The notes below the pieces were generated by a model, which searched no databases, had not been told where the DNA came from, and worked only from the letters and a program-made list of their open reading frames with translations. Positions 760 to 43,967 of a DNA stretch of 49,070 bases are shown one piece after another. The translations under genes and the position numbers were made by a program. This DNA is from Candidatus Heimdallarchaeota archaeon (lineage in GTDB: Archaea; Asgardarchaeota; Heimdallarchaeia; Heimdallarchaeales; DAOWED01): assembly GCA_030638685.1 (NCBI GenBank), contig DAOWED010000130.1, positions 1 through 49,070 of the forward strand, in the 5' to 3' direction. Position 1 is the first letter of the stretch. The number at the start of each line of letters is the position of its first letter.

Positions 760-768
760 GTGATTATT

Positions 769-6647: not shown

Positions 6648-7124
6648 TTGGATGTGAATAATCTGACTAATCAATCAAACAAATCTAAAATAATTTCCGA
6701 AGATAAAGCTTCTCCTTTTCTAGTAACTGAATTTATGACTAGAGGAGTTTTATCTTTTCATAAAGATGAAACAACTCAAACAGCAGCTACTAAAATGATG
6801 GATCTTGGAGTGGCTTGTTTTATCGTTCTGGATGATAATGGTATATCAATTGGAATTGTCACAGAAAAAGATATTGTAGGAAAAGTAGTTGCAAAAAATC
6901 TCATCCCTTCAGAAGTAACAATCGAGTCAATAATGTCTTCACCTGTGAAAAAGTTACCAACTTCAACCACTATTGATGAAGCAATTGATGAGATGAATTC
7001 TCATGGAATTAAGCATATGGTTATCTATGAGGCTCTTGAAACGGGAGAGAGTGTTGTAGGGATGCTTTCTTTTACTAATTTGGTACGAGCAGATCTTTCT
7101 CTAAACCGTCTAATTATCTACTGA
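6648..7124 (+). CDS. CBS-domain pair protein
   Basis: 158 aa with a TTG start 3 nt after the cdc48 stop. There are two CBS-like repeats (VTEFMTRGVLSF...IVTEKDIVGKV and IESIMSSPVKKL...GMLSFTNLVRA). An internal ATG start (MTRGV...) is also possible. Confidence 0.8.
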   Translation: MDVNNLTNQSNKSKIISEDKASPFLVTEFMTRGVLSFHKDETTQTAATKMMDLGVACFIVLDDNGISIGIVTEKDIVGKVVAKNLIPSEVTIESIMSSPVKKLPTSTTIDEAIDEMNSHGIKHMVIYEALETGESVVGMLSFTNLVRADLSLNRLIIY

Positions 7125-9771: not shown

Positions 9772-10587
9772 CTATTCATCTTCTTTTTTCGCTTTAGTAG
9801 ATTTAAAGAGGTCAATTACTTCTTCAGTCATTACTATCCTCTTAATACCTGCAACTTCAATATCTAAAAGATGCATATGACTCTCAAGTTTAGCAGCAAT
9901 TTCCTCAATACGATCAACATTTGTTTCCAGCTGAGACAAACGAGAAAGAATAGAATTATCATTGTTAGACAAAGTAGGTTGGGGGGGTGAAGTTGATGAA
10001 ACAGGAGCGGATTGTTGAGAGATTGAAAGATCTTCTTCAAAAAGCTGAGACATAAGACTATCAGAAATATCATGGAATACCTGATCGATGTTTTCTCCAG
10101 TTAATGCGCTAGTATATTTAAGAAAAATGGGGATATTATACTCTTTCTTAAGTTCATCCAGAAGAGAACGAACTTCATCATCAGAGACGGACTTCAGCTC
10201 GGAAAGATCAATTTTGTTACCAATGATAGTAATGCCTAAAATGGTGTCTCTGCAGTATTCAAAAGCCTCAGAAACCCATGAACGAACTGAAGAAAGAGAA
10301 TCAGTGTTTGTAACATCAAAAACGGATATAAGAAAAGAAGTACCGTAATAAAAAGTGGAACGCATGCCTTTAAACATGTTCTGGCCAGCTAAATCCCATA
10401 TGGTGAGTACTAGCTTCTTATCTTGATAAGTAGCTGTTCTTGATGCCCAATCACATCCTAATGTAGGCATATAATTTACTCTGAATGATCTTCCCATGTA
10501 TTGTCTTCTGATGCTTGTTTTTCCTACTTGACCATCTCCTACGAGTATGATTTTAAAGGTTGCATCAGGTAAAAAGCGTTTTTCCAT
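9772..10587 (-). CDS. Ras-superfamily (Rab/Ras-like) small GTPase with a ~90-aa C-terminal low-complexity plus coiled-coil extension
   Basis: 271 aa. All five G motifs are present: G1 GDGQVGKTS, switch I YMPTLG, G3 WDLAGQ, G4 GNKID and G5 TSAL. The tail is QQSAPVSSTSPPQPTLSNNDNS followed by the heptad-like LSRLSQLETNVDRIEEIAAKLESHMHLLDIEVAGIKRI. There is no C-terminal Cys. Confidence 0.9.
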   Translation of the reverse strand: MEKRFLPDATFKIILVGDGQVGKTSIRRQYMGRSFRVNYMPTLGCDWASRTATYQDKKLVLTIWDLAGQNMFKGMRSTFYYGTSFLISVFDVTNTDSLSSVRSWVSEAFEYCRDTILGITIIGNKIDLSELKSVSDDEVRSLLDELKKEYNIPIFLKYTSALTGENIDQVFHDISDSLMSQLFEEDLSISQQSAPVSSTSPPQPTLSNNDNSILSRLSQLETNVDRIEEIAAKLESHMHLLDIEVAGIKRIVMTEEVIDLFKSTKAKKEDE

Positions 10588-19664: not shown

Positions 19665-22355
19665 CTAATTCATTATAAACCAAAAATTATCAGATACAGA
19701 CCAAGTATTTTGTTCAAAAGTAATTAGACCGTCTGATAACGGATTTACGGTATAATATTCCTCTTGCTGAAGCAGTTGATCGTATTGATTTATCCAAGTA
19801 TAAGCTAATGATGCATTTATTAGTTGAATAGAGTTGGATGGAAGATCCATCATTTTGTATTTAATGAAAGAGTTGAGATCAGAACTACTTAGAGAAAAGT
19901 TCTGCTGAAAAATCTCCTCTCCTACTGAATAGAATATTTGTGAAGATACTTCGACGGATGATGCTTGTAAACTAGTGAAATCGAGAAGACTTACCAATTC
20001 ACCGGTTGATGTTTCTCTTTCTTTGAGAGGAACCATTAAACTACTAATACCTAACATAGAATTATCAACTGATAATCCTAAATCTAAAACACCGTAGAAC
20101 GTATTGAAACTATTCACTTTATAGAGTTCAAACTCTGAATTATTGTAAAGATAAGAAAAAATATCACTATTATGAACCATTGAAAATATAGGGTATTCTC
20201 GTAAAATGTAGGATTCAAAAGATTCATACCAATTATGGTCCTTTCTTAAAGAAACAACAAGAGTAATATCATATTCGTTCATTATCTCAAGAAGATAAGT
20301 AGTATTGAACCTAGCAAAATGATTCTTGGAAAGATCAAACTCGGTAGTGTAGAAAAGATCTATTACGGGATGACTTGAGTAAAATTCTAATCCTGGTACG
20401 TTAGCTCCAATGATAACATCTGAGTTGGGTGCTTGAGACACTCTTATTGCTTCAATAAGATCCATCATGTTTTCTCGGGCATCGTAAACCCATTTATTCT
20501 GAAACTCATCAATGTCAAAACCTGTATCATACAGAAGATAAATTTGACCTCCTATAGGGGCGATGAGTAAAACACTTATTACTCCAACAGTAGCTCCTTT
20601 GTGAATAGCAGCACTTTTCCTAGGCTTCGGAAGCGAGAATTCATAATTATCCCATTTAATTATAAGATATATTAGCAAGGTAAAAGCTACTAAGTAGTAG
20701 CCTAACCTGAAGAGATTTCTATGATATTCATAATATCTTAAGTGAAATTCTAAAGAAACTGTTTCTAAAGGATAAAAAGGGTACTGTGATCCAAAAGCCA
20801 ATAGTAGTAATAACCCTTCTACTAAAAGACTGGGGTCTCTTCCTTCAGTTAATTTTGCATGAAGGAAATAAAATCCTTTAACTGTGATTAATGCTAGTGG
20901 TACAAGTATAACTGACAAATATCGGGTAGATGTGAACGAAAAATAAGCCAGCCAGATAATGTAGAATCCTATTAACCAGATCCTGATCATATCCCATTCA
21001 CCTTCATCTTTTTCTCTCTTAAAAATACCAACAATTTTGGGAAGAGCCCAAGGAAGAGCAAAGATTGATCCGATAAAAATGACTAGAACTGCACTCCCAA
21101 AAGATGCTTTCATGGCGTTTTCAATATATGTTTCCGCTTCAGGGATATTAATTTCAGGAAAAGAATAATTCCATTTGTCATCATTGATATAAACATACAT
21201 GTCTTCAAGAAAAGATCGAGTTCCGGGGGTGGTCTTTATTCGATCATATAACCAGTAAACCGCGACCAATAACCATGGAATGAGTTCTAGTGATAAGGTT
21301 GTTAAAGAAAGATTCTTTGTTTCTTGCTGAGTAAAGATAAGATAGGCAAGATAAAGACCAAAAAGAATAATCACAACACTCACGCCAATATAGATGTCAT
21401 ATCCTGCTTTTCTAGCCAAGAATAATGTCATGAATGTCAAGACAATTATGCGTAAAATTTTACCGATTCTGTTAGAGGGAGCGGAAAGAAGAATTAACAA
21501 TGGAAGAGCATAGCCACTAATTTTAGAAAGACCAGCTAAGGCTAAACTTAGCCCTGCAATTGTGGCATTTAGTTTCTCGTTTTCCTTCCCTTGGATTAAT
21601 CGAAGATGAAAGTAAAAAGCCATGGTGTAAAAAGCCATAATGTAAAGGTCTTGATAATAAGCCCATTCGTAAATAAGGAACCATGTAAGTGGGGAAGTAA
21701 TAAAGAAAAGAACTGAGCTAATAGCTTTTCTTTTGCTTTGAAACAACTCAAAGGCCAATCGATAGAGTGTTAAGGCTGTTAGAATAAGAATGAAAATAGA
21801 ATAAAAAACAAAACTGTCCTCTTTTGTAACGTAAAGGGCATAAGTATAAAGTAAGGAATTAAGAGGGGGTTTAAAGATGGGGAGAAAATTATAGGGGCTT
21901 ATAGCTGGAATATCATTAGTAAAATAAAAAACTCTGGCATGGGGTAAGTAAAAATGAAGGGCGTCCCATCCTCTGAAAGTGTACAATAGTGAAATAATAG
22001 TATAACTGAGCAATATTAAGCCAGAGATAATAACTCTGATATCTTTAAAAAACGAAGGAATTTTAAACTCAAAAAAAGTTAAACTGTTCATAGTATGCTG
22101 ATAATGCTTGAAAAGAAGATAAACCGGATAAAGCATACTCACAGCAAAGTAAAAGTAGCATATTGTATCAAGAGGTACATTGAATAATCGGTTTAGAAGC
22201 ACCATAGGAGCTGTAAGGAAAAAAAGACTCAAAATAGAACCACTGATGATTTTATCGAGAGTATTTTCATATTTCCAACCGAATTTATCTAAACTATTTA
22301 CTCCTAAAAGTCCAATAAAACCTATGCTAATAATAGGGAGCATTTCTAATATCAT
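19665..22355 (-). CDS. GT-C fold membrane glycosyltransferase (ArnT/PMT-like, polyprenyl-phosphate-sugar dependent) with a large C-terminal extracytoplasmic domain
   Basis: 896 aa. About 580 aa are polytopic (well over 10 hydrophobic helices), followed by a soluble region of about 300 aa. The first loop carries FRGWDALHFYLPHARVF. I found no WWDxG motif, so I do not call it AglB/STT3. Confidence 0.65.
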   Translation of the reverse strand: MILEMLPIISIGFIGLLGVNSLDKFGWKYENTLDKIISGSILSLFFLTAPMVLLNRLFNVPLDTICYFYFAVSMLYPVYLLFKHYQHTMNSLTFFEFKIPSFFKDIRVIISGLILLSYTIISLLYTFRGWDALHFYLPHARVFYFTNDIPAISPYNFLPIFKPPLNSLLYTYALYVTKEDSFVFYSIFILILTALTLYRLAFELFQSKRKAISSVLFFITSPLTWFLIYEWAYYQDLYIMAFYTMAFYFHLRLIQGKENEKLNATIAGLSLALAGLSKISGYALPLLILLSAPSNRIGKILRIIVLTFMTLFLARKAGYDIYIGVSVVIILFGLYLAYLIFTQQETKNLSLTTLSLELIPWLLVAVYWLYDRIKTTPGTRSFLEDMYVYINDDKWNYSFPEINIPEAETYIENAMKASFGSAVLVIFIGSIFALPWALPKIVGIFKREKDEGEWDMIRIWLIGFYIIWLAYFSFTSTRYLSVILVPLALITVKGFYFLHAKLTEGRDPSLLVEGLLLLLAFGSQYPFYPLETVSLEFHLRYYEYHRNLFRLGYYLVAFTLLIYLIIKWDNYEFSLPKPRKSAAIHKGATVGVISVLLIAPIGGQIYLLYDTGFDIDEFQNKWVYDARENMMDLIEAIRVSQAPNSDVIIGANVPGLEFYSSHPVIDLFYTTEFDLSKNHFARFNTTYLLEIMNEYDITLVVSLRKDHNWYESFESYILREYPIFSMVHNSDIFSYLYNNSEFELYKVNSFNTFYGVLDLGLSVDNSMLGISSLMVPLKERETSTGELVSLLDFTSLQASSVEVSSQIFYSVGEEIFQQNFSLSSSDLNSFIKYKMMDLPSNSIQLINASLAYTWINQYDQLLQQEEYYTVNPLSDGLITFEQNTWSVSDNFWFIMN

Positions 22356-22486: not shown

Positions 22487-23443
22487 CTACTCCTCAAGAG
22501 CAAAAGGATAGGTTTGTTGAACTATCTGGTAAACAATCTCCGGTGGGAAAATGCCTGCTTCTGTGATTAATCCGTCAATATAGTCACGACTAATTGTTTC
22601 GAAAGCAGGATTGACAATATTTAGTCCCTCAGGAGCATCTGGCCAGAGTTCCTTTCCTCCTCTCATCTCAACCTCTGTTCTTTCACCTAAATGAGTTTGA
22701 GCATCAAATTTGAGTAAGCTTGCCGTAACATAAACAGGTACATCACTTTCTTTGGCTGCCAGTGCAAGAAGACGAGAACCAATTTTATTGAAAACCGTTC
22801 CTTGGCTAGTGATAGCATCGGCTCCAATAATAATAATGTCAGCATTAAACTTTCGAATAGCCCATCTCATACCTGAGTCAACAACCATGGTAGAAGGCAC
22901 ACCAGCACTGACTAATTCTTTTGCAGTTTTTCTTCCTTGATAAAGTGGTCTTGTTTCAGTACAAACAGCAGTAATGTTTTTGCCTTGCTTAAATGCTTCA
23001 ACAATGGTTCCGGATGCAAGGCTAGAGTGACAATGGGTCATTACTGTAGTGTTATCATCAATTCGAGTACTTCCAAATTCAATAATCTGTCTTTTGGAAG
23101 ATGTAAGCAAGTCAAGGTACTTAGAGCCCCTTGCTGAAGTTAATTCTTTAAGCTCATCTATTGATCCCTCATGTGAACGAAGATTAGATAAAATATAACG
23201 AAGACCATTTCTCAAAGCAGGTTCAGTAGGACGGGAATTCCAAAGGATTGACTTTGCTATTTCCAATTCTTGTAAGAATACATTTCTATCTTCAACAAAA
23301 AGCCGGGTTGCATATTCAGAAAAGGCTTTTACTCCTTCAATAGCTACATTTGTTGCTCCTTGTATTGTCAAATCTGATATTCTCTGGGAGACGTCACGAA
23401 GTAATTCCATAGTAATCAGAAATAGTATAGGAAGAAGCTTCAA
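22487..23443 (-). CDS. eIF-2B alpha/beta/delta-like protein, e2b2 / ribose-1,5-bisphosphate isomerase type
   Basis: 318 aa. It has IQGATNVAIEG, VMTHCHSS, and IIIGADAITSQGTVFNKIGS. The true start is probably the internal Met at 23410 (MELLRDVSQRI...). Confidence 0.85.
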   Translation of the reverse strand: MKLLPILFLITMELLRDVSQRISDLTIQGATNVAIEGVKAFSEYATRLFVEDRNVFLQELEIAKSILWNSRPTEPALRNGLRYILSNLRSHEGSIDELKELTSARGSKYLDLLTSSKRQIIEFGSTRIDDNTTVMTHCHSSLASGTIVEAFKQGKNITAVCTETRPLYQGRKTAKELVSAGVPSTMVVDSGMRWAIRKFNADIIIIGADAITSQGTVFNKIGSRLLALAAKESDVPVYVTASLLKFDAQTHLGERTEVEMRGGKELWPDAPEGLNIVNPAFETISRDYIDGLITEAGIFPPEIVYQIVQQTYPFALEE

Positions 23444-23523: not shown

Positions 23524-24609
23524 TTGAGTCAAAACGCTTTATTTTTAATGAAAAAGTCGATAAGAGACATAATGGATAGTCAACCCAAAGACCTTTCAAA
23601 CGTTCATAAATGGTTTAGACCCACCAAAGAAACAATCATTCACCCAACCTACTTAAAAAAACTCAAAAATCAACAATATCAAATTTTTGGGTTAAATTCA
23701 GCAGCAAAAAAATGTTTATGGGTGCATAATGCGTTGTATGGACAGGGAACTTGCTATAAAAACACCTTTTATGGGATAGCTTCTCATAGATGCATTCAAA
23801 TGACACCCAATCTAATATCATGCCCTCTTTCATGTCTATTTTGTTGGAGAGTTCTCCCAGAAGATATTCAACTACCTTCACCATTAAAAGACGGCGCCAA
23901 ACTGACATTTGACGATCCAGAAACGATTTTTTACGGAATGCACTGGGCACAAAGAAGAATAGTATCAGGATATAAGGTAGTGGTAGATAAAAAACTGTTT
24001 GAGGAGGCATGGAACCCAAAACATGTAGCTTTAAGTCTAGCTGGGGAACCGACTTTTTACCCACATATGAACGAATTGCTAGAGTTAATACATGAACATG
24101 AGCTGACATCATTCATAGTATCGAACGGACAGTACCCGTCAAGAATAGAAAAGATAATGGAAACGCCATTCCCGTCGCAGATGTATCTAACAGTAGCAGC
24201 ACCAAACATAAGAACCTACAACGAAATATGCCGACCAAAAAATGTAGAAACAGCATGGGGGCGATTAGAAAGAAGCTTAGAACTGGTAAAAGAAATGAAA
24301 ACAAGAACGGTAGTAAGATTAACAGTAGCTAATACATTAAACTTGGAAGATGCAGAAGGTTATGCTGAACGAATAGAAATAGGAAAACCAAACTTTGTAG
24401 AAATCAAAGGAGTAGTTCATGTGGGCGGAGCACAAAGTAGGATCGAGAGAGAAACAATGCCATCTCACGAAGAAGTTAAAACCTTCGGGGAAGAAATTGC
24501 AGAGCATCTAACAGGATATAAACTGGTGAAAGAGCACCCAAGATCAAAAGTAGTATTGCTCACAAATGGTAAAAACCCAGAAGTAGTGTTTGGAGAAGTA
24601 ACAAATTAA
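23524..24609 (+). CDS. taw1: tRNA 4-demethylwyosine synthase, radical SAM (Taw1/TYW1)
   Basis: 361 aa. The radical-SAM cluster motif is CPLSCLFCW, with LAGEPTFYPHMNELLE and a C-terminal wyosine-base-formation-like region. It has a TTG start; an alternative ATG is at 23548. Confidence 0.9.
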   Translation: MSQNALFLMKKSIRDIMDSQPKDLSNVHKWFRPTKETIIHPTYLKKLKNQQYQIFGLNSAAKKCLWVHNALYGQGTCYKNTFYGIASHRCIQMTPNLISCPLSCLFCWRVLPEDIQLPSPLKDGAKLTFDDPETIFYGMHWAQRRIVSGYKVVVDKKLFEEAWNPKHVALSLAGEPTFYPHMNELLELIHEHELTSFIVSNGQYPSRIEKIMETPFPSQMYLTVAAPNIRTYNEICRPKNVETAWGRLERSLELVKEMKTRTVVRLTVANTLNLEDAEGYAERIEIGKPNFVEIKGVVHVGGAQSRIERETMPSHEEVKTFGEEIAEHLTGYKLVKEHPRSKVVLLTNGKNPEVVFGEVTN

Positions 24610-25027: not shown

Positions 25028-25558
25028 TTAGGCGCCATTTTTAGCCTTAATTAAGTTAACTAATTCATCCTTTCTCAGTTTTAGAGCGTTGATTATTACT
25101 TCATTCTCAAAAGGTTCAAACTTTTCTCCGCACTCTGGACAGACAAATTCGAAAACCATTGCATCTTGAAAGCTTATTCTTGTGTAATGTTCACAATTTG
25201 ATTGGAAGAACATTTGGCTTTCTTCAAATTCTAACCTCATTTTTATTTTATTCAGTACCTCCTTCCTTCTAGTACTAATAATATCGTCAATTCTTTCTGG
25301 GTGAATTTTCCAAAGGTATAGAAACCATCCGCTGTTTTTGTCTCTTATTCTTCTAAATGAAGCAAGTTGGATGTCATAAAGCCTGTAGAGTGCTTTTCTT
25401 ACGTTGTTTAGCTTTATGTCTAATTCTTCTGCTATGATTTCATCTGTAGTTTCTTCCTCAGAATCAAGGAGGACTATTGCTACTTTTTTTACTTCAGGTC
25501 CTGCTATATCTTCTACCATGTTTAATAGTGTCTGTCGTTGTGTCTCTGAAATTGTCAT
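25028..25558 (-). CDS. tfe: Transcription factor E, alpha subunit (TFIIE-alpha homologue)
   Basis: 176 aa. The N-terminal extended winged helix is TDEIIAEELDIKLNNVRKALYRLYDIQLASFRRIRDKNSGWFLYLW. The C-terminal zinc-ribbon-like segment is NCEHY...FVCPECG. Confidence 0.85.
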   Translation of the reverse strand: MTISETQRQTLLNMVEDIAGPEVKKVAIVLLDSEEETTDEIIAEELDIKLNNVRKALYRLYDIQLASFRRIRDKNSGWFLYLWKIHPERIDDIISTRRKEVLNKIKMRLEFEESQMFFQSNCEHYTRISFQDAMVFEFVCPECGEKFEPFENEVIINALKLRKDELVNLIKAKNGA

Positions 25559-33103: not shown

Positions 33104-33868
33104 TTATACTTTTTCAAAATTATCAAGAGCCTTTCTTAAAGAGACCTGAATCAATTTTTGAAGGGGACGAATAATTAAGTTAACAGAACCAGGTCTATGT
33201 TCAGGTTTAAGTGTTCCTTCATGAGTAACTAAATCTAAAATGTTATCTTTCTTAAGAAGGGCAAGAAGATCATTTCTTGCAGTAAGACAACTTCCCGTCA
33301 TTACAAAATCAGAAGCTTTGGTTTTTGAATGCACTATACCTTCATCGACTAGAATCTCAATCAACTCAGATTTTGGTGTTCGATCAGATGAAGGGATATC
33401 ATTTTTATTAATAAAAGTTACAACCGGCAAGCCTTCTTTCACTTTTTCTGCAGTAAACTTAATGGCGTTTAAATTATCCTCCCAACTTCTATTATCAAAA
33501 TCTAACAAAAGAAGAATGCCATGAGCCCCCTTTATAATAATATCTCTTTGTGTTTTATGTCGTTCCTCACCTGGTGTGGTCCAGATTTGAAATCTGAATC
33601 TTTCAAGAAGCTGCCCTTTGATTTTTGGTGTTTGAAAAAGACCTTTATCGAAGAAAATTGTTCTTCCTACTTCATCTTCTAACATTTGAAGTTCAGAAAC
33701 AACAAGCTCTGGATCTTCAATCTTTCTGATTGCATTGATTATTCTTAAAGCGGACGTTTTACCTGCAGCAGATGGTCCGTGAAGAACTATTTTAAGAGTG
33801 GGTAGTCCTTCCCAATCAACTGTAAGTGGAGAAGAGATCATAGATTTAGAATAAACTCTATCATACAA
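33104..33868 (-). CDS. MglA-like small GTPase with a Q-to-E substitution in G3 and a ~80-aa C-terminal extension
   Basis: 254 aa. The motifs are KIVLHGPSAAGKTS (G1), GRTIFFD (MglA-type switch I with Arg), FQIWTTPGEE (G3 with Thr in place of Asp, as in MglA TVPGQ, but Glu in place of Gln), IIKGAHGILLLLD and INKND (G4). Confidence 0.8.
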   Translation of the reverse strand: MYDRVYSKSMISSPLTVDWEGLPTLKIVLHGPSAAGKTSALRIINAIRKIEDPELVVSELQMLEDEVGRTIFFDKGLFQTPKIKGQLLERFRFQIWTTPGEERHKTQRDIIIKGAHGILLLLDFDNRSWEDNLNAIKFTAEKVKEGLPVVTFINKNDIPSSDRTPKSELIEILVDEGIVHSKTKASDFVMTGSCLTARNDLLALLKKDNILDLVTHEGTLKPEHRPGSVNLIIRPLQKLIQVSLRKALDNFEKV

Positions 33869-33984: not shown

Positions 33985-36216
33985 ATGATCTTCAGAAAAC
34001 AATTCCTTCTCTTTTTTATCTCAGTATTGCTTGTTTCTTCATTATCAAATAACTCCAATGCAAGTACTACTATTTCATTAAGCAAAGAATCACTCACTTC
34101 AACCATTGAACCTTCTATTCAAGATAGTCTTTCCTCTTCTGAGTTTGTGGATATTACAGCTATTTTGAAATCACGAACACTAGAATATACACCTGATTCA
34201 GAACCTGAAATAAGAAAACCGAGCTTAACTCCTTCTATTCAAGTTGTGGGTGATTTTGAGTTATTCTACGTGTACAGTAACCCTGGTTATGACCAAATAA
34301 ATACTACACTAAAGGCGATTGGCGAACACTGCTACATTTATGTTGCAAATAGCTATTCAATGACTGCTGGAGAAATCGCCAACTTTATGGATGAGTTTGA
34401 CACTATTATTTATCCTGAAGAAACAAGTTTCTTTGGGGATACTGATGGTACTCTTGGAGATATTGATGGTGATCAGAAGATCACTTTACTATTTTATCAT
34501 ATCCCCTTTGCCGCCGGTTATTTTGATTCGATACATGAACACCCCATTAATTATTTTACTGGGTATGAATACAAAGAATGCAGTAACGAAAGAGAAATGG
34601 TATTCTTAAGAAAGGATGGTTTTAGCACCTTAGCCCACGAATTTAACCATTTAATACATTATAACATCGATCAAACAGAGGATCGTTTTCTTGACGAAGC
34701 TTTTGCACAAATGGGTGAATGGATTACCGGATACCTCCCATCTGATAACAGAACTGGTTTTGTTTCTTATTTTGAGAACTATTCTAATGATTCTCTTTTA
34801 ATGTGGGACTATGATTCTGAGGATCATGATGCCAGAGTTGATTATGGTGGAGCTTACCTTTTTATTTTCTATTGTGTTGAACAATTTGGGATCGAAATCT
34901 TGGAACCTCTAATGTCTTCTCAAGAAGATGGTGCAACTTCTATTGAAAACACTCTAGCAGACCTTGGTTATTCTATTACTTTTGAAACTCTCTTTACTAA
35001 TTGGTATTTGGCTATGCGACTTGATGATCCTACATTAGGTGATGGAGAATGGGGTTATAGGTGGCTAGATGTAACACTTTATGACAAGGTATTCATCACC
35101 TCAGCTCCTACAAATGTAACAATTAAAGAATTCGAATGGTCAGGATCTTTTTACCATTTTAACATTGAATCATCAAATGAACAAAGTATAAACATTACAG
35201 CCCCTTCAGATGCAAACTATCAATTAGTGTTCTTACCTTATGAAGATGGTTTACTTCCACCATACGATTCAGTTTGGATTTCCTCAGGGAATTCATATCA
35301 AGTAAATGATGATCAATGGAATCAAACTGATAGATTTGAAATGCTTGTTTTATCTATTCCTAATAATTTAACAGGAGATTTTGGTATCGGTGACCTTTTA
35401 ATTGGTTCATTTGAACTTGAAGCTGTTTTTTATTCTGTTTCAACTGGAGATTTCAATTACAATCTTCAATATTTTAGTCTTGAAAATGTTGAAATAAGAT
35501 ACAATGATTCATTAGTATTGCCAGAATCAATATCTGAGGTTTCAATTCATTTCTTTGATGAATTAGATACTGAACAAGTTTTTTTAACAGTAGATTTAGT
35601 TTATGATGAAGAAAATCAATCTTGGCGTTTATCTGAAAATATAACTTTAGAGTACCTTTCACACGGATTAAACTACTACAAAATATATGTTATACACAAT
35701 GAAGACCATTGGTGGAGTGCAAAATCCACTACTTTTGAAATTGTGCACGAAATGCTTCTTGAATCATTATCAATCTCCAGTACTTCTGAAACTCTTAATA
35801 CTTATTATGTTAAATCAAGCTTCAATTTTACTTATCCACTTTGGGAAGATTATTTGGATGATCTGACCGTAGAAGTTGAATTCTTTGAGGACGGAAGTGC
35901 TTCTCCTTTTGAAATAAAAACAGCATATTATTCATCTGATGAAGGTGTATGGATAACCTCAATTACTCTTACTTCAGACATGGACCCCATTTACGTGGTT
36001 ATTAATGCTTCAATTACTATAGCTGGTGATTCATTTAGCTTGGAAGTTACTTCATCTCCAATTGATCTCGAATATTATCCCCCATCTGACCCTCCAACCG
36101 ATGAACCGTCAGATTCCTCACTTAGTGAATTCAACTTGGCATCTCTTGGAATAATTATGATTTCGATGGTTAGTTTGGTTTTTATTAGACGATTTTCAAA
36201 TAGGAAGAAACTTTAA
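33985..36216 (+). CDS. Secreted, C-terminally anchored zinc metalloprotease-like protein (HExxH, gluzincin-like) with a large beta-rich C-terminal region
   Basis: 743 aa. It has a signal-like N-terminus (LLFFISVLLVSSLSNNSNAS), TLAHEFNHLIHY...FLDEAFAQMGEW (HExxH plus a downstream Glu), a Pro/Asp/Ser linker PPSDPPTDEPSDSS, a TM helix LASLGIIMISMVSLVFI and an RRFSNRKKL tail. Confidence 0.7.
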   Translation: MIFRKQFLLFFISVLLVSSLSNNSNASTTISLSKESLTSTIEPSIQDSLSSSEFVDITAILKSRTLEYTPDSEPEIRKPSLTPSIQVVGDFELFYVYSNPGYDQINTTLKAIGEHCYIYVANSYSMTAGEIANFMDEFDTIIYPEETSFFGDTDGTLGDIDGDQKITLLFYHIPFAAGYFDSIHEHPINYFTGYEYKECSNEREMVFLRKDGFSTLAHEFNHLIHYNIDQTEDRFLDEAFAQMGEWITGYLPSDNRTGFVSYFENYSNDSLLMWDYDSEDHDARVDYGGAYLFIFYCVEQFGIEILEPLMSSQEDGATSIENTLADLGYSITFETLFTNWYLAMRLDDPTLGDGEWGYRWLDVTLYDKVFITSAPTNVTIKEFEWSGSFYHFNIESSNEQSINITAPSDANYQLVFLPYEDGLLPPYDSVWISSGNSYQVNDDQWNQTDRFEMLVLSIPNNLTGDFGIGDLLIGSFELEAVFYSVSTGDFNYNLQYFSLENVEIRYNDSLVLPESISEVSIHFFDELDTEQVFLTVDLVYDEENQSWRLSENITLEYLSHGLNYYKIYVIHNEDHWWSAKSTTFEIVHEMLLESLSISSTSETLNTYYVKSSFNFTYPLWEDYLDDLTVEVEFFEDGSASPFEIKTAYYSSDEGVWITSITLTSDMDPIYVVINASITIAGDSFSLEVTSSPIDLEYYPPSDPPTDEPSDSSLSEFNLASLGIIMISMVSLVFIRRFSNRKKL

Positions 36217-38176: not shown

Positions 38177-38542
38177 TTATACAACTAATTGTATTGGTTG
38201 GTCAACTTGAACTGAAATTTCTCCATTTTCTTCATGAGTTATTTTGGCATTAGATGGGACAATTATTGAAAAGAGGTTTTTTGATCCTCTGCTGAATAAC
38301 CCCTTTTTCTCATGTTCTGTTTCACATTTTAAATACTGAATGCCTCTATATTCTTCAGGGTCATTTGCTATGGTTAGCATTATTCGTTCAATAAGACCAA
38401 ATTCTTCTTCTGATGTTAAAATATGGTTCTCAAGTATTAATATAGTATTTTTCTTACTTTTTCTAACAAGAAAATCTAATTTGCTATCTGTTGATAATCT
38501 GTTAAGTTTAGCTTCAGGGATTAAGGCAACATTAAACATCAT
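38177..38542 (-). CDS. Small conserved-looking hypothetical protein (possibly DUF2073-like), translationally coupled to the upstream GTPase
   Basis: 121 aa. Its ATG overlaps the GTPase TGA (ATGA at 38539-38542), with GAGGTGGT just upstream. The core is ILILENHILTSEEEFGLIERIMLTIANDPEEYRGIQYL. The family assignment is from memory only. Confidence 0.6.
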   Translation of the reverse strand: MMFNVALIPEAKLNRLSTDSKLDFLVRKSKKNTILILENHILTSEEEFGLIERIMLTIANDPEEYRGIQYLKCETEHEKKGLFSRGSKNLFSIIVPSNAKITHEENGEISVQVDQPIQLVV

Positions 38543-39255
38543 ACCACCTCTGCTATCTTTGAATAGAGCTCCTTCACTCCTTTTCCATCAAGTGCTGAAA
38601 TTAATATTATGGACATGTCTGGAAAAATTTGATCAAGTAGTTCACTATTTTCTTTTGCTCCTGGGAGATCCATTTTATTACCAACAATAATGCAAGGAAC
38701 TTTATTAGCCTCCAAATTGCCTAATATTGTCAAATTCACCTGGTCAAAAGGAGCCTTCGATAAATCTACCACTATTAAACCAAGATCGACTTCTGTAATG
38801 CTTCTAATCGCTTCAATTATTCCTCTTGTAGCTTCTCTAGCTCTTACGAGTGCATCTTCTCTTGGAATTCCCATCCTTATAAATTCTTGAAAATCAACTG
38901 AGGAAGCAATTCCTGGCATATCCATTAGAGTTAACTCTAACGAAGTATCATCTATATGAAAATTGACTTGTTCAAGTTTTTCAATTGTTCTCGTTTCATG
39001 AGGGATTTCACTTACTGAACCCATTTTTTTACCAGTATAATCAAGAGAAAAATGATTAGCAAGGGTTGTCTTTCCAGCGTTTGTTTCACCGAAGAAACCT
39101 ATCTTTGCATCATTACGTTTTCTACTAATCCATCTTGAAAACCAGTTGCTTTTTGAACTTGAGGTGGCCATATAACTCAAACTATTTTTAAACCAATTAA
39201 TAATAAAACAAAGGTAATACTCGAAAAATACTACGGGAATACCGGAATAATACAC
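38539..39255 (-). CDS. Era/HSR1(MMR_HSR1)-type small GTP-binding protein
   Basis: 238 aa. The motifs are G1 GETNAGKTT, G2 region HETRT, G3 DMPG, G4 GNKMD and G5 ISALDGKG. The listed start adds a hydrophobic 28-aa leader. The internal ATG at 39171 (MATSSSKSNWF...) is an alternative start. Confidence 0.85.
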   Translation of the reverse strand: MYYSGIPVVFFEYYLCFIINWFKNSLSYMATSSSKSNWFSRWISRKRNDAKIGFFGETNAGKTTLANHFSLDYTGKKMGSVSEIPHETRTIEKLEQVNFHIDDTSLELTLMDMPGIASSVDFQEFIRMGIPREDALVRAREATRGIIEAIRSITEVDLGLIVVDLSKAPFDQVNLTILGNLEANKVPCIIVGNKMDLPGAKENSELLDQIFPDMSIILISALDGKGVKELYSKIAEVV

Positions 39256-39370: not shown

Positions 39371-40627
39371 ATGGAAAATTATAAAGTTAAAGACATAGAG
39401 TTAGCAGAAAAAGGAAGATTGTTGATTGACTGGGCAGAAAGTAGAATGCCTGTTTTAATGCATCTCCGTAAAAAATATCAAGAGACAAAACCTTTGAAAG
39501 GATTAACTGTTGCTGGCTGTTTACATGTTACAAAAGAAACAGCTGTTTTAGTGGAAACAATAGTTGCAGCAGGAGCAGAAGTGGCTTGGAGTGGATGTAA
39601 TCCTTTAAGCACTAATGATAAAGTTGCAGCTGCTTTAGCAGCAAACGGTATTCCTGTTTTTGCTTGGCATGGAATGAACAAGGAAGAGTTTTATTGGGCA
39701 ATTGATAAAACAATAGAGGCTAATCCTGATTTAACTTTAGATGATGGAGCCGACCTAATATTTCAGATGCATAGCAAACACAAAGAAAAATCCACAAAAG
39801 TGATTGGTGGGACAGAAGAAACAACAACTGGTGTCCATAGGCTAAGAGCAATGGGAGAATCAGGTAAACTCCTCTATCCAATTATAGCTGTTAACGACAC
39901 CCCAACAAAATGGCAATTTGATAATGTTTATGGCACTGGTCAAAGCACACTTGATGGCATTTTAAGGGCAACAAGTATCCTTATTGCTGGTAAAATTGTA
40001 GTAGTTGCTGGTTATGGTCATTGTGGGAGAGGTGTAGCAATGAGATCTCAAGGACTAGGTGCGAAAGTTATCGTTACTGAAGTTGATCCTGTTCAAGCAC
40101 TGAAGGCAACTTTGGAGGGTCATAATGTTATGACTATGGATCAAGCCGCTCCTCAAGGTGATATTTTTGTAACAGCAACGGGAATAAAGGATATCATCAC
40201 AGGTAAACATTTCGAGCAAATGAAAGATGGAGCAGTAGTTTGCAACACTGGACATTATGATGTTGAGATTAATATTGGTGATCTTGAAAGCTTGGCAAAA
40301 TCTGTTCGAGAAGTTCGACCTAACAATGAAGAATATTTATTAGAAGGTGATAGGCGCATTTTCTTATTAGCAAAAGGCAGGCTAGTAAACCTTGCTGCTG
40401 CGGAAGGACACCCCAGTGAAGTCATGGATATGAGTTTTGCAAATCAGTTACAAGCTTTAATTTACCTTAATGAAAACAGCAGCAAACTTGATAATAGAGT
40501 ACATGATGTTCCTGAAGAAATAGACACAGAAATAGCCACTTTAAAACTTAATACAATGGGTATGGAAATTGATGAGCTAACTCCAGAGCAAATTACTTAC
40601 TTATCTGACTATTCTGCAGGCACATAA
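39371..40627 (+). CDS. ahcY: S-adenosyl-L-homocysteine hydrolase (adenosylhomocysteinase)
   Basis: 418 aa. It has LKGLTVAGCLHVTKETAVL, EETTTGVHRL, the NAD-binding VVVAGYGHCGRGVA, and NTGHYDVEI. Confidence 0.95.
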   Translation: MENYKVKDIELAEKGRLLIDWAESRMPVLMHLRKKYQETKPLKGLTVAGCLHVTKETAVLVETIVAAGAEVAWSGCNPLSTNDKVAAALAANGIPVFAWHGMNKEEFYWAIDKTIEANPDLTLDDGADLIFQMHSKHKEKSTKVIGGTEETTTGVHRLRAMGESGKLLYPIIAVNDTPTKWQFDNVYGTGQSTLDGILRATSILIAGKIVVVAGYGHCGRGVAMRSQGLGAKVIVTEVDPVQALKATLEGHNVMTMDQAAPQGDIFVTATGIKDIITGKHFEQMKDGAVVCNTGHYDVEINIGDLESLAKSVREVRPNNEEYLLEGDRRIFLLAKGRLVNLAAAEGHPSEVMDMSFANQLQALIYLNENSSKLDNRVHDVPEEIDTEIATLKLNTMGMEIDELTPEQITYLSDYSAGT

Positions 40628-40734
40628 ATCATAATCTCCATAAATTCATTTTAGGCTTTTTCATTTTTTAATGTTTGAATGCAAATGATACAAAGCGATA
40701 GCTTTAATGGTTAGTTTTGTACTGTATACTTTGA

Positions 40735-41862
40735 GTGATACCATTGAATACAATTGATGTTTCTCATATCAATAGTGAGTTTTCCTCTCTGGACTCAGAA
40801 GCCACACTTGATCAATTAATTGAACTTTTCAAAAAAGATCATGATGTTTACATCTTTCAAAATGAAACCTATTTAGGTTGTGTTACTGAACATGACTTAA
40901 TGGGTCATGAGGGAGATGAAGCTGTTTCTACTATTAGTACTTTTGTTAACCCTCAACCGGTAATAACTCTTGATACTCCTTTTCATGAAGCTGCTAGAAT
41001 AATACTCAATCATAGAACACACTCAGTAGGTGTTAATGATAAAGACGGTGACTTCATTGGAGTGGTTTCGGATAAGATACTAATTGCTAGCCTTGATGGT
41101 GAAGATATGGCCTTGATTGACTATATGTCCTCAAATCTGGTTACTATTTCAGATAAAACTAATATTTCTCAAGCAATTGATCTTCTACGAGCTAATAAAA
41201 TCTCTAGAATACCTGTGATAGATGATAATTTCGACATTATAGGTCTCTTATCTTCACATAATATTCTAGAATTGTTTTTGGACACTTCATCAACGGAGCA
41301 GAACAAAGATCAAATATGTGTTTCTGATATTATGAATTCTTCACCTGTTTTAGCTACTGAATTTCAAACACTTTCAGATGCAGCAAAACTAATGATAGAC
41401 CGCAATACCTATGCAGTTGTAGTTGTCAGAACTGATACAAAGATCCCAATTGGAATAATTACAATAACTGATCTTTTAGAAAACCTAAGCATTGAACCCG
41501 CACAAGAAGGTTATCAAGTAAAGGTAATTGGAGACTATGATGAAAGTGTACTTGAATACTTGGTAGAAGAGTCTCTTTCACTAGTTTCAAAGTTTGCTTA
41601 CTTCATGGGTGGGTCAGGGAAAGTAATTATTCGAACAAGAGCTTATCCTAAAAGAAAATTCAGGGGTCAGATTCTATATAATATCAGAGTCAGAGTAATC
41701 GGTAACAAAGGTTTCTCTCAAACTGCAAAAGCTGACAGTTATGGAGTAGAAGCGGCGTTCCAAATGGCTTTAGATCATTTTGAAAGAGCAATAATAAATG
41801 TTATTGATATTGAAGAAGATAGGCAGAAAACAATCTTTGATACTGGTTTAGACGACCTGTAA
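40735..41862 (+). CDS. Four-CBS-domain protein with a C-terminal HPF/RaiA (ribosomal S30AE)-like domain
   Basis: 375 aa with a GTG start. Four CBS repeats span about aa 1-250. Residues aa 260-358 (nt ~41512-41808) read YQVKVIGDYDESVLEYLVEESLSLVSKFAYF..GKVIIRTRAY..YNIRVRVIGNKGFSQTAKADSYGVEAAFQMALDHFERAIIN. That is a beta-alpha-beta-beta-beta-alpha pattern ending like the HPF family motif. The CBS call is solid. The HPF-like call is by eye. Confidence 0.75.
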   Translation: MIPLNTIDVSHINSEFSSLDSEATLDQLIELFKKDHDVYIFQNETYLGCVTEHDLMGHEGDEAVSTISTFVNPQPVITLDTPFHEAARIILNHRTHSVGVNDKDGDFIGVVSDKILIASLDGEDMALIDYMSSNLVTISDKTNISQAIDLLRANKISRIPVIDDNFDIIGLLSSHNILELFLDTSSTEQNKDQICVSDIMNSSPVLATEFQTLSDAAKLMIDRNTYAVVVVRTDTKIPIGIITITDLLENLSIEPAQEGYQVKVIGDYDESVLEYLVEESLSLVSKFAYFMGGSGKVIIRTRAYPKRKFRGQILYNIRVRVIGNKGFSQTAKADSYGVEAAFQMALDHFERAIINVIDIEEDRQKTIFDTGLDDL

Positions 41863-41947: not shown

Positions 41948-42850
41948 ATGTGGGCTGAAGCAATAAAAAACGGCATTTCGTGGATCCTGTCACAAGAAAC
42001 AGTTGATGGAGGATGGTCTGAAATACCAAGAGGACCCCCAAATAATGCAAGTTTACAATCTGTAGGCAAATTGGTTCAGTCAGAATTAATCAAATTAACA
42101 GACGAACAGATCAGAAAAGCGAGCACAGTAGTAATATCTGCACAATTTGAGGACGGTTCTATACCTTATTATCTTAATGAGCGAAGCGCTGGAGTACAAT
42201 CGACAACATTAGCATTAAATGGTTATTTTGATATTTGCCCAGAAGAAATGAGAGATGTATTATTTGTTTCGAAGGCAATTCAATTTATCACACGTCATCA
42301 AGAGAAAGATGGAAAATTCATAGAAAAAATAAGAATAAATCCTCAAGGCGGAATTGCTGAAACGGCAATTTCAAGATCCTTAGTAACAGCATTAGCACTG
42401 CTTCCTCTTCAGAAGTATTATGGTTTAAAGGATAATATTTCTCTAATTAGAGCCTACGAAATGCTAATTATAGACTTTAAAAAATTCATGGCTAATAAGT
42501 TGCCAGAATACGAATTTTATCGGTCAAGAATTGTTTTAGAAGTAATAAGTGAATGGTTCAGTGAACAAACAGAATATCAATCACTTCTTGCTGCTAGAAT
42601 CGCCCAGCTTCAGAGGAGTGATGGCTCATGGGTATTCAAGAAAATGAATGCTGCTTTTTCAACACCTATTGCTGTTGCAATGCTAGAATTAAGTAATGTA
42701 GGAACAAATGATCCAATGTTACAGAAAGCATTTCACTACCTGATAAACAATCAAGCACCTGAAGGTTTCCGGAGAACTGGATCCCCTAAAAATTCTCTAC
42801 CTAGTTTGTCATTAACAGCAGAAATTCTTTTACTACTTAATCATAAATAA
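41948..42850 (+). CDS. Prenyltransferase/squalene-oxidase-repeat (alpha/alpha-toroid) protein
   Basis: 300 aa. It has five spaced Q-x(2-3)-[DE]G-x-[WFI] repeats: SQETVDGGWSE, AQFEDGSIPYY, HQEKDGKFIE, LQRSDGSWVF and NNQAPEGFRR. It has only one Cys, so I saw no obvious Zn site of protein prenyltransferase beta subunits. Confidence 0.65.
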   Translation: MWAEAIKNGISWILSQETVDGGWSEIPRGPPNNASLQSVGKLVQSELIKLTDEQIRKASTVVISAQFEDGSIPYYLNERSAGVQSTTLALNGYFDICPEEMRDVLFVSKAIQFITRHQEKDGKFIEKIRINPQGGIAETAISRSLVTALALLPLQKYYGLKDNISLIRAYEMLIIDFKKFMANKLPEYEFYRSRIVLEVISEWFSEQTEYQSLLAARIAQLQRSDGSWVFKKMNAAFSTPIAVAMLELSNVGTNDPMLQKAFHYLINNQAPEGFRRTGSPKNSLPSLSLTAEILLLLNHK

Positions 42851-42923: not shown

Positions 42924-43967
42924 ATGTCAATTGATGAGAACCCAATTATTGCAGATGCAATAAGCAACCTTGATTATTTTTTTCAGGCAGAATCCTCTAA
43001 ACTGCTTAAAGAAGAAGTAACCAATTGGCAAGTTACTAGTGTTACTCATACAGAAAAAAAGGGGCGTTTTGCATCTATTTACCTCTTAAAGATCTCACTA
43101 TTAACTGATCTTGGAGAAATCGAACATAGTGTAGCCATAAAAATGATTGGAGAAGGTACCTTACCGCTGGATGAATTAGCCAATTCTTTCTACCTTGAAA
43201 ACACTTTTAGAATATTACCTGAGTTTGGTACCCCTCGAGTACTTTACTACAAATCTTCTGCTCCTGCTTATATTCTTTATGAGGGTGTAAGAGGAAGTAA
43301 TTATGATGAACTTGCGCTAGTTAAAGACAAAGCAACCCATGCTGGTCGCTTACTAGCAGCCATTCACGGAATCTCACAAAAAAGAATTGATATTGAAACT
43401 TATGAGGGGTTAACACGGTTAATTGGTCAACAGCTGAATGACACACTAGAGGAACGCCGGATATCCGCAGGAATAAAACCTTTTCTTGAAATAATGGAAA
43501 CCTCAAATGGCGGTTGCTATCCTTTTGGTGATTTTCATCAAAGCAATGTAATGGTTGAATCGGCAAATAACTTAGTTTCAAGAATGTACGTTATTGATTC
43601 GGAATATATGTTAAAAATTCCATTTGACCGATTTGATGACATAGGTTCCTTTTTTGGAAGACAATTATATCTAGAATATCGTTCAACTCAAAACTTCACG
43701 CAAACTGCTACAGATATCAGTGACTTCATAGCTGGTTATAATAGTTTTCTGAAAGAAAGAAATACTCCAACTTTAGATGAACTCTACCCAAAAGGAACTA
43801 CTTTAGACTTCTTTCTGTCACAATGGCTAATAATGAATTTACTAGATCAAAAATTGGACCCCTCTAGAGCAAGATCACCTACAGAAGATGCTCAAAAAAT
43901 GACCCTTATTCTGGCTTTATTGGAAGAAAAACCCTTTCAAAAGTTACTTTCTCATCAAATCCTTTAG
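42924..43967 (+). CDS. Aminoglycoside-phosphotransferase (APH)/choline-kinase-like small-molecule or protein kinase-fold enzyme
   Basis: 347 aa. The catalytic-loop-like segment is YPFGDFHQSNVMVE and the metal-binding-like segment is YVIDSEYM. It also has an N-lobe Lys region (VAIKMIGEG). Confidence 0.7.
   Translation: MSIDENPIIADAISNLDYFFQAESSKLLKEEVTNWQVTSVTHTEKKGRFASIYLLKISLLTDLGEIEHSVAIKMIGEGTLPLDELANSFYLENTFRILPEFGTPRVLYYKSSAPAYILYEGVRGSNYDELALVKDKATHAGRLLAAIHGISQKRIDIETYEGLTRLIGQQLNDTLEERRISAGIKPFLEIMETSNGGCYPFGDFHQSNVMVESANNLVSRMYVIDSEYMLKIPFDRFDDIGSFFGRQLYLEYRSTQNFTQTATDISDFIAGYNSFLKERNTPTLDELYPKGTTLDFFLSQWLIMNLLDQKLDPSRARSPTEDAQKMTLILALLEEKPFQKLLSHQIL

Follow-up and report, generated by a model that had tools for sequence, protein, structure and literature searches.

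A HibA/AHA-type gene, encoding four CBS domains and an HPF/RaiA-like domain, in a Kariarchaeaceae-like Asgard archaeon: a probable ribosome hibernation factor with a truncated PTC loop

The closest described relatives of the gene considered here encode archaeal ribosome hibernation factors, in which a module of four CBS domains is followed by a C-terminal domain (CTD) of the HPF/RaiA type. The family was described as HibA in Pyrococcus abyssi and Thermococcus barophilus (Madru et al., Nat Commun 2026, PMC13324472) and was named independently, as AHA, in Haloferax volcanii (Souza et al., bioRxiv 2026, PMC12934967). We analysed a stretch of 49,070 nt from contig DAOWED010000130.1 of a Candidatus Heimdallarchaeota archaeon (assembly GCA_030638685.1), referred to below as the window, and one of its genes, which very probably encodes an archaeal HibA/AHA ribosome hibernation factor from a Kariarchaeaceae-like Asgard archaeon. 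In current databases such proteins are labelled only 'CBS domain-containing protein'. Binding to the 70S ribosome, inhibition of translation and preservation of 70S ribosomes in stationary phase are known from the P. abyssi and T. barophilus HibA proteins and from Hfx. volcanii AHA (PMC13324472, PMC12934967). HibA blocks translation in vitro; its CTD is essential for this, and the N-terminal CBS module alone is not inhibitory. Deletion of hibA leaves ~60% fewer 70S ribosomes and delays regrowth (PMC13324472), and an AHA deletion mutant loses viability (PMC12934967). On the large subunit, a loop between the third and fourth CBS domains enters the peptidyl-transferase centre (PTC) around A2602, E. 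coli numbering; it is known as the 'PTC loop' in HibA, where it covers residues 190-207, and as 'loop 3' in AHA (PMC13324472, PMC12934967). The HibA authors nevertheless argue that the CBS module works by filling vacant tRNA sites and not through specific contacts, two of its three states making no use of the PTC loop (PMC13324472). HibA is present in ~47% of archaeal genomes, with standalone HPF-like proteins in a further 8% (PMC13324472), and AHA is distributed over 17 archaeal phyla, including Asgardarchaeota/Hodarchaeales (PMC12934967). An earlier, sequence-only reading of the window, which did not count HPF homologues among the standard genes of archaea, is thus out of date on this point.

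Homology to HibA extends over the whole protein. In a full-length phmmer search of PDB chains the window protein matched 9sr9_H (E 4.6e-27) collinearly, query residues 13-363 aligning with target residues 11-378. The CTD alone, searched against all PDB chains, recovered residues 289-378 of the same 392-aa chain (E 1.6e-4), which is labelled 'Dehydrogenase'; according to the data-availability section of the HibA paper, entries 9SR9-9SRF and 9T7H are P. abyssi HibA on the 70S ribosome (PMC13324472). Run exhaustively against 1.84 billion representatives, phmmer yielded 237 matches at E ≤ 1e-10, and dozens of representatives of 350-400 aa aligned in one stretch over both the CBS and the HPF modules. 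Sixty-three members drawn from this search constitute the family alignment to which the counts below refer, and 45 CTDs were cut out for a CTD-only profile. A word-index homologue search returned four matches with the full-length query and none with the CTD profile, and the full-length profile was dominated by generic CBS proteins. The closest homologue, 86% identical, is encoded in a metagenome-assembled genome (MAG) of Candidatus Kariarchaeaceae (Asgard / Promethearchaeati), whereas the second closest, from Heimdallarchaeaceae, shares 32% identity. The same CBS and HPF-like architecture is also found in PDB chain 9l96_a (also 9l98, 9l9c and 9l9v), a 406-aa 'CBS domain-containing protein'. 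The CTD sequence of 9l96_a is acidic and haloarchaeal-looking, and a literature search for PDB 9L96 found no paper.

The two-module architecture is equally evident from domain searches and modelling. Pfam detects four CBS stretches in the protein (E 6.2e-37), the repeats extending over residues ~10-57 (CBS1), ~66-120 (CBS2), 129-182 (CBS3) and ~197-251 (CBS4). The AlphaFold2 model of the full-length protein, built on the family alignment, is confident (pLDDT 92.8, pTM 0.87) and defines in the CTD the elements β1 (260-266), α1 (270-291), β2 (295-309), β3 (312-323), β4 (328-336) and α2 (338-370); a model of the CTD only (pLDDT 92.5) shows a secondary-structure order matching the HPF-type fold. 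Both the four CBS domains and the β-α-β-β-β-α order of residues 260-358 (nt 41512-41808) had been recognized in the sequence-only reading, and its central proposal, the fusion of a CBS sensor with an HPF/RaiA-like domain, is borne out by sequence, profile and fold evidence and corresponds to published HibA (PMC13324472) and AHA (PMC12934967). That reading thus reached, from raw sequence, an architecture which three groups set out by electron cryo-microscopy (cryo-EM) in 2025-2026.

Judged from the window CTD alone against Pfam, the HPF relationship is only a lead. When the CTDs of the family were scanned one by one, PF02482 was matched in 30 of 45 (best E 6.8e-9), and no other Pfam family was matched by more than one of them. 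Searched against the PDB, the CTD-only profile found HibA (1.3e-33), 9l96_a (5.3e-17), bacterial HPF (3.8e-6) and RaiA/YfiA (2.6e-3), the bacterial and plastid HPF, RaiA, YfiA and pY proteins spanning 3.8e-6 to ~1; hibernation factors made up 28 of the 29 matches listed. A profile from which the window protein and its orthologue had been left out scored the window CTD at 93.9 bits, whereas none of 1000 shuffled sequences exceeded 9.8 bits. Consistent with these results, the eight best Foldseek matches of the CTD model in the PDB are all ribosome-bound HPF, pY or PSRP1 chains (6eri_BV at 1.3e-5, followed by 5mmj_y, 28lu_y, 5x8r_y, 8uu7_w, 8fmw_W, 7m4z_v and 5zep_x; TMt 0.55-0.74), and hibernation factors account for 10 of the 11 matches at E ≤ 1e-3. 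No HibA chain of the 9SR* entries was among the top Foldseek matches of either the full or the CTD model (PDB library to 2026-04-08). The generic ferredoxin-like or ACT fold that the sequence-only reading had named as the alternative was not what these searches returned. Its terminal-helix signature was right in part: the profile alignment reveals a motif in α2, A-A-[FI]-x-x-x-[LI]-D-x-[FL]-x-R, common to the window CTD and the HPF family, the D-x-Y register being shifted. A search of the window for a second HPF-like domain found none.

Mapping the published table of HibA-ribosome contacts onto the family alignment revealed that the family-conserved contacts with the 30S subunit, apart from the position of Q277 in P. 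abyssi (Pab) HibA, are identical in the window protein, most of the remaining contact positions being variable family-wide. K324-F325-R326 of P. abyssi, which contact A1461 of h44, G496 of h18 and uS12 (PMC13324472), are retained as K308-F309-R310; the arginine of this KFR insertion recurs in 39 of the 63 aligned sequences. The residues form part of archaeal-specific insertion 2, located between β14 and β15, which reads KFRGVHL in P. abyssi and KFRGQIL in the window protein. Likewise identical are R320 (Pab R336, contacting h31/uS9), R351 (Pab R366, contacting h44) and A331 (Pab A346). On the body of the CBS module, the family-conserved contacts P75, R88 and R152 are also kept.

The CBS tetrad itself resembles those of other ribosome-bound and nucleotide-binding proteins. 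Foldseek matches of the full model fall mostly on the tetrad (TMt 0.63-0.77, E 5e-20 to 1e-15), the best being ribosome-bound SriA and SriD, SSO3205-AMP, MJ1225, AMPK-gamma and Dri, which reproduces the relations reported in the AHA preprint (PMC12934967). The ribose-binding motif G-h-h-[ST]-x-x-[DN] is intact in CBS3 (GLLSSHN) and CBS4 (GIITITD), the two repeats in which the family conserves it best, and T243 and D246 are shared by no fewer than 58 of the 63 aligned sequences. HibA and AHA bind AMP or ATP at CBS3/CBS4 (PMC13324472, PMC12934967); AHA binds two AMP molecules (PMC12934967), and the affinity of HibA, determined by isothermal titration calorimetry (ITC) with AMP, ADP, ATP, GTP and GMP, follows the order AMP > ADP > ATP (PMC13324472).

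By homology, the cryo-EM structures of the P. abyssi and Hfx. volcanii proteins suggest how the window protein may work. When energy or nutrients run short, its HPF/RaiA-like CTD would lodge in the decoding centre and mRNA/tRNA channel of the 30S subunit, where K308-F309-R310, R320 and R351 would face h44/A1492-equivalent bases, uS12 and h31. The lodged domain would block the binding of mRNA and of A- and P-site tRNAs, and the tethered tetrad would fill tRNA space on the 50S subunit, so that the 70S ribosome would be held together and shielded from degradation. The CBS3/CBS4 pocket would bind an adenine nucleotide, most likely AMP, which may tune engagement or release.

Several observations weigh against the assignment to HibA/AHA and against parts of this mechanism. 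The window protein is only 25.6% identical to characterized P. abyssi HibA, and its CTD (C-terminal 121 aa) scores 15.5 bits (E 0.031) against PF02482, under the gathering cutoff of 23.7; by its sequence it is a remote PF02482 homologue, not a canonical member. The 30S contact Q277 of P. abyssi, a glutamine in 41 of 63 members, is replaced by K263. Insertion 1 (Pab 283-SAL-285, between β13 and α11) is absent, appearing as a gap in the HMMER alignment; in P. abyssi HibA it is part of the uS19-tail site (PMC13324472). This region is variable across the family, and removal of both archaeal insertions left inhibition in vitro unimpaired (PMC13324472). The tip of the PTC loop (Pab 195-203), including conserved E201 and K202 of the GEKIP motif, is deleted; the motif is conserved in Dri too (supplement of the HibA paper, PMC13324472). 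Furthermore, among the 63 members only one has a more acidic CBS module, and such acidity is unusual for a surface contacting rRNA. Finally, AMP or ATP had no visible effect on the ribosome binding of P. abyssi HibA (PMC13324472), and for this reason 'energy-controlled' is a hypothesis for the whole HibA family. The energy-controlled silencing factor of the sequence-only reading fits the cryo-EM structures and genetics of HibA/AHA, its control by energy being hypothetical.

The sub-cutoff PF02482 score could also be taken to mean that the CTD is a generic ferredoxin-like or ACT-like module and the protein a non-ribosomal CBS regulator, such as a transcription factor of the HhpR (CM-3) kind or a regulator of metabolism. 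CBS tetrads are indeed used in many contexts, HhpR being a tetrad transcription factor; HhpR is among the weak, far sub-threshold NCBIfam matches in the CBS region, and in IMG some members of the family carry the label 'predicted transcriptional regulator'. However, the preponderance of hibernation factors in both the profile and the Foldseek searches and the conservation of residues contacting rRNA and uS12 would be hard to reconcile with such a function, and HhpR combines its tetrad and long CBS3-4 loop with no HPF domain (PMC13324472). We consider this explanation highly improbable.

The real deviation of the window protein lies in its CBS module. Its CBS3-CBS4 loop, like that of the Kariarchaeaceae orthologue, comprises 13 residues (DTSSTEQNKDQIC) with a net charge of -2 and one basic residue, the corresponding medians across the family being 22 residues, +1 and four. 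Measured between fixed anchors, the loop has 26 residues in the window protein versus a median of 35, and at least 33 in 54 of 61 other members. Short loops occur in 8 of the 63 family members sampled, so that a long PTC loop is typical of the family, not universal. At the base of the loop, P189, R190 and K192 of P. abyssi are replaced by T, S and T, and the substitutions K47L, K66V, K106D, K151Q, R190S and K192T together remove basic residues that contact 23S rRNA in P. abyssi. The net charge of the module is -26, or -10.2 per 100 aa, the family median being +1; its acidity per residue is ~3x the average of the proteins of the window, which is -3.6 per 100 aa. Such acidity might reflect tRNA-like electrostatic mimicry.

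Taken together, the truncated loop and the acidic CBS module suggest altered docking on the large subunit. The PTC-inserted state is probably weakened or absent in the window protein, and occupancy of the 50S subunit is more likely steric, as in uL5- or L1-stalk-type states. We infer that the protein would still silence the ribosome via its HPF domain, because in P. abyssi the CTD is essential and two of the three CBS positions do not use the PTC loop. The same features could alternatively indicate a degenerating or diverged HibA paralogue, which would bind only the 30S subunit via the HPF domain and whose acidic, loop-less CBS module, no longer docking on the 50S subunit, would serve as a nucleotide-dependent regulatory or sequestering handle. 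The deleted loop tip, the charge of the module and the lost 23S contacts are compatible with this explanation, as is the dependence of P. abyssi inhibition on the CTD, the N-terminal module alone being inactive. By contrast, P75, R88 and R152 on the module body are retained, occupancy of tRNA sites as argued for HibA makes little demand on the loop, the tetrad is intact and folds confidently in both Kariarchaeaceae orthologues, and the 8 members with short loops imply that such forms appear to persist. Loss of 50S docking is thus unlikely, and a complete hibernation factor with modified 50S docking is preferred.

The features of the locus are listed in the table below. The gene is an open reading frame (ORF) of 375 aa counted from a GTG start, the coordinates including the stop codon. 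A conserved TTG at 40744, three codons after the GTG at 40735, is the annotated start of the 86%-identical orthologue and would give a protein of 372 aa. From the sequence the start codon is therefore ambiguous by three codons, the choice being limited to GTG or TTG because the next in-frame ATG would cut into CBS1.

Features of the hibA locus and its immediate neighbours, with positions in the window
Feature	Position	Strand	Basis
hibA/AHA-type gene	40735..41862	+	ORF listing; collinear alignment with 9sr9_H (P. abyssi HibA) over the full length
CBS module (four CBS, residues 1-254)	40735..41496	+	Pfam CBS x4; model secondary structure; Foldseek
Truncated CBS3-CBS4 loop (residues 183-195), DTSSTEQNKDQIC; equivalent of HibA 'PTC loop' / AHA 'loop 3'	41281..41319	+	loop comparison with family
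HPF/RaiA-like CTD (residues 257-375)	41503..41859	+	PDB search, family profile, Pfam, model, Foldseek
KFRGQIL (residues 308-314); equivalent of archaeal-specific insertion 2 (Pab 324-KFRGVHL-330)	41656..41676	+	alignment
ahcY (S-adenosylhomocysteine hydrolase); not shown to be part of the hibA system	39371..40627	+	Pfam AdoHcyase 1.2e-78, AdoHcyase_NAD 2.4e-57
T5 and T6 tracts, 30-42 nt past the ahcY stop; putative archaeal terminator-like signal	40657..40669	+	sequence
Conserved upstream block GATACAAAGCGATAGCTTTAAT, ending in TATA-like TTTAAT ~27-30 nt before the start codon; putative promoter	40687..40708	+	sequence
α/α-toroid protein, prenyltransferase-like, downstream of hibA	41948-42850	+	SQHop_cyclase_C 1.1e-8
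Weak APH-like kinase fold, downstream of hibA	42924-43967	+	E 0.0077

The position of ahcY, 107 nt upstream of hibA on the same strand, is as the sequence-only reading had it, and the Kariarchaeaceae MAG shares the gene order GTPase<-, ahcY->, hibA->, α/α-toroid protein->, APH-like->. The conserved upstream block is kept in that MAG, the surrounding intergenic sequence having diverged, and the second T-run is conserved there as well. From archaeal TATA-box spacing, we infer that the block may act as the hibA promoter; the spacer as a whole suggests a terminator followed by a separate promoter, that is, separate transcription of ahcY and hibA. The context of other family members was sampled from the contigs encoding them, and an AdoHcyase neighbour was found at none of the five other loci with readable context (Heimdallarchaeaceae P0005, P0006, P0007 and P0009; Thermococcales P0013). 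A functional link to ahcY was rejected on this count. Because the adjacency is seen only at the orthologous Kariarchaeaceae locus, we take it to be confined to the Kariarchaeaceae-like lineage; it does not support a sensor of methylation state.

These data bear directly on the methylation-state control that the sequence-only reading had entertained, in which the CBS tetrad would read S-adenosylhomocysteine (SAH) or S-adenosylmethionine (SAM) and control translation or ahcY itself. Some CBS domains are established to bind SAM, as the HibA discussion also mentions, and the published ITC was confined to AMP, ADP, ATP, GTP and GMP (PMC13324472); together with the proximity of ahcY and its retention beside the 86%-identical orthologue, this is what such a sensor has in its favour. 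The sole locus sharing the neighbour is, however, too close to be independent, the T-tracts after ahcY and the conserved TATA-like box ~30 nt before hibA suggest separate transcription, and characterized homologues bind AMP at CBS3/4 through site motifs that are conserved in the window protein. A methylation sensor is therefore very unlikely. Somewhat less remote, and still improbable, is a distinct Kariarchaeaceae sub-type of HibA, which would have lost the PTC-plugging loop and acquired a strongly acidic, nucleic-acid-like tetrad. Its HPF domain would silence the ribosome, while the tetrad would mimic tRNA electrostatically or dock only in uL5/L1-stalk-type states on the more eukaryote-like Asgard ribosome; the pocket could be retuned to SAH/SAM, in keeping with the lineage-specific adjacency of ahcY.

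The kinase downstream of hibA was considered as a recurring neighbour, an APH-like kinase being present also beside a HibA homologue in another contig (P0006, L004). The two kinases are non-homologous (blastp E 8.7), and the recurrence was dismissed as coincidence. Divergent from ahcY lies an OapA/OapB-like pair with a 4-nt overlap, comprising a GTPase at 38177-38542 (-) (MMR_HSR1 2e-14) and an OapB-family gene at 38539-39255 (-) (PF09846 'origin-associated protein OapB', 3.4e-8). The only other CBS ORF of the window is a standalone 158-aa CBS pair at 6648-7124 (+) (Pfam 4.9e-20), which begins 4 nt after a Cdc48-type AAA ATPase (4380-6644); it is a generic protein with no HPF domain, and its similarity to the CBS repeats of hibA is weak (phmmer --max E 8e-5).

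Two small GTPases of the Ras/Arf/Roc family, encoded at 9772-10587 (-) and 33104-33868 (-) (Ras 9e-38; Roc 3e-7), belong to the 'eukaryotic signature' proteins typical of Asgard archaea and agree with the origin of the window from a Kariarchaeaceae-like organism. In Heimdallarchaeaceae contig L002, a GTPase of the Ras family likewise lies directly upstream of the HibA homologue. Pfam returned nothing at E ≤ 1e-5 for two large ORFs, at 33985-36216 (+) (743 aa) and 19665-22355 (-) (896 aa). The former encodes an extremely acidic protein (-12 per 100 aa), and in the Kariarchaeaceae MAG the corresponding position is occupied by a counterpart of 748 aa (L001 3236-5482). A lamin-tail-domain protein at 760-2856 (+) (LTD 3.6e-9), an IF-2B family protein at 22487-23443 (-), a Tyw1-like wyosine radical-SAM enzyme at 23524-24609 (+) and TFE-alpha at 25028-25558 (-) represent ordinary archaeal chromosomal context. 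The window contains no tRNA genes and has no Rfam matches.

The family, its mechanism, AMP binding and presence in Asgard archaea are all already published; the window protein adds a member and opens no new category of system. What it provides is a corrected annotation and a concrete, testable mechanism transferred to an uncultured Asgard lineage. Moreover, a natural loop-less, acidic variant could serve to test two proposals on ribosomes of the archaeal lineage closest to eukaryotes: that AMP binding exerts its effect via the PTC loop, as put forward for AHA, and that the CBS module acts by steric occupancy and not by specific contacts, as put forward for HibA.

Among the known systems, bacterial HPF and RaiA (YfiA, pY) and plastid PSRP1, which make up PF02482, share the fold of the window CTD and are detectably homologous to it (profile E 3.8e-6 to 2.6e-3; Foldseek TMt 0.61-0.74). 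They are standalone proteins of ~95-120 aa or, as long HPF, carry a C-terminal dimerization domain, whereas the window domain follows a CBS tetrad of 254 aa and, unlike them, contains the archaeal KFRG insertion. Dri and Sri/ARC are CBS-tetrad hibernation factors occupying tRNA sites, and the N-terminal module of the window protein resembles SriA (5e-20), SriD (5e-17) and Dri (~1e-15). Dri of Pyrobaculum calidifontis (9E6Q/9E7F) is one polypeptide whose eight CBS domains form two lobes of four, the second tetrad being placed on the 30S subunit; it has no HPF domain, in contrast to the four CBS domains and HPF-like CTD of the window protein. The 'CBS-domain dimer' on crenarchaeal ribosomes mentioned in the sequence-only reading corresponds to Dri in being a ribosome-bound CBS factor, although not in being a dimer. 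SriA-D / ARC-A/P of Methanosarcina acetivorans (9ZNF-9ZNI) are standalone tetrads, likewise without the HPF domain that the window protein has. The HibA family and the Dri/Sri/ARC families are largely mutually exclusive across genomes (PMC13324472, PMC12934967).

AHA (HVO_2384) combines an AMPK-gamma-like CBS tetrad with an HPF domain, as does the window protein, whose tetrad matches AMPK-gamma in Foldseek at E ~1e-16. In AHA, loop 3 lies deep in the PTC and is the proposed coupler between AMP and ribosome affinity; such coupling could not work alike in the window protein, because most of the loop is missing. HibA (P. abyssi PAB0961 / T. barophilus TERMP_00697), from a hyperthermophile, differs from the protein of this mesophile-like, low-GC (35%) Asgard archaeon in several respects. 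The window PTC loop is 9 residues shorter and lacks GEKIP, insertion 1 (SAL) is missing, and the CBS module has a net charge of -26 versus -9 in the Thermococcales representative P0013. The basic C-terminal tail by which HibA contacts h23/uS7/uS11/eS28 is shorter and acidic (net -5) in the window protein. The two nonetheless share their domain boundary (Pab270, window residue 257), the KFRG insertion, the 30S contacts equivalent to R336 and R366, and the nucleotide-site motifs of CBS3 and CBS4.

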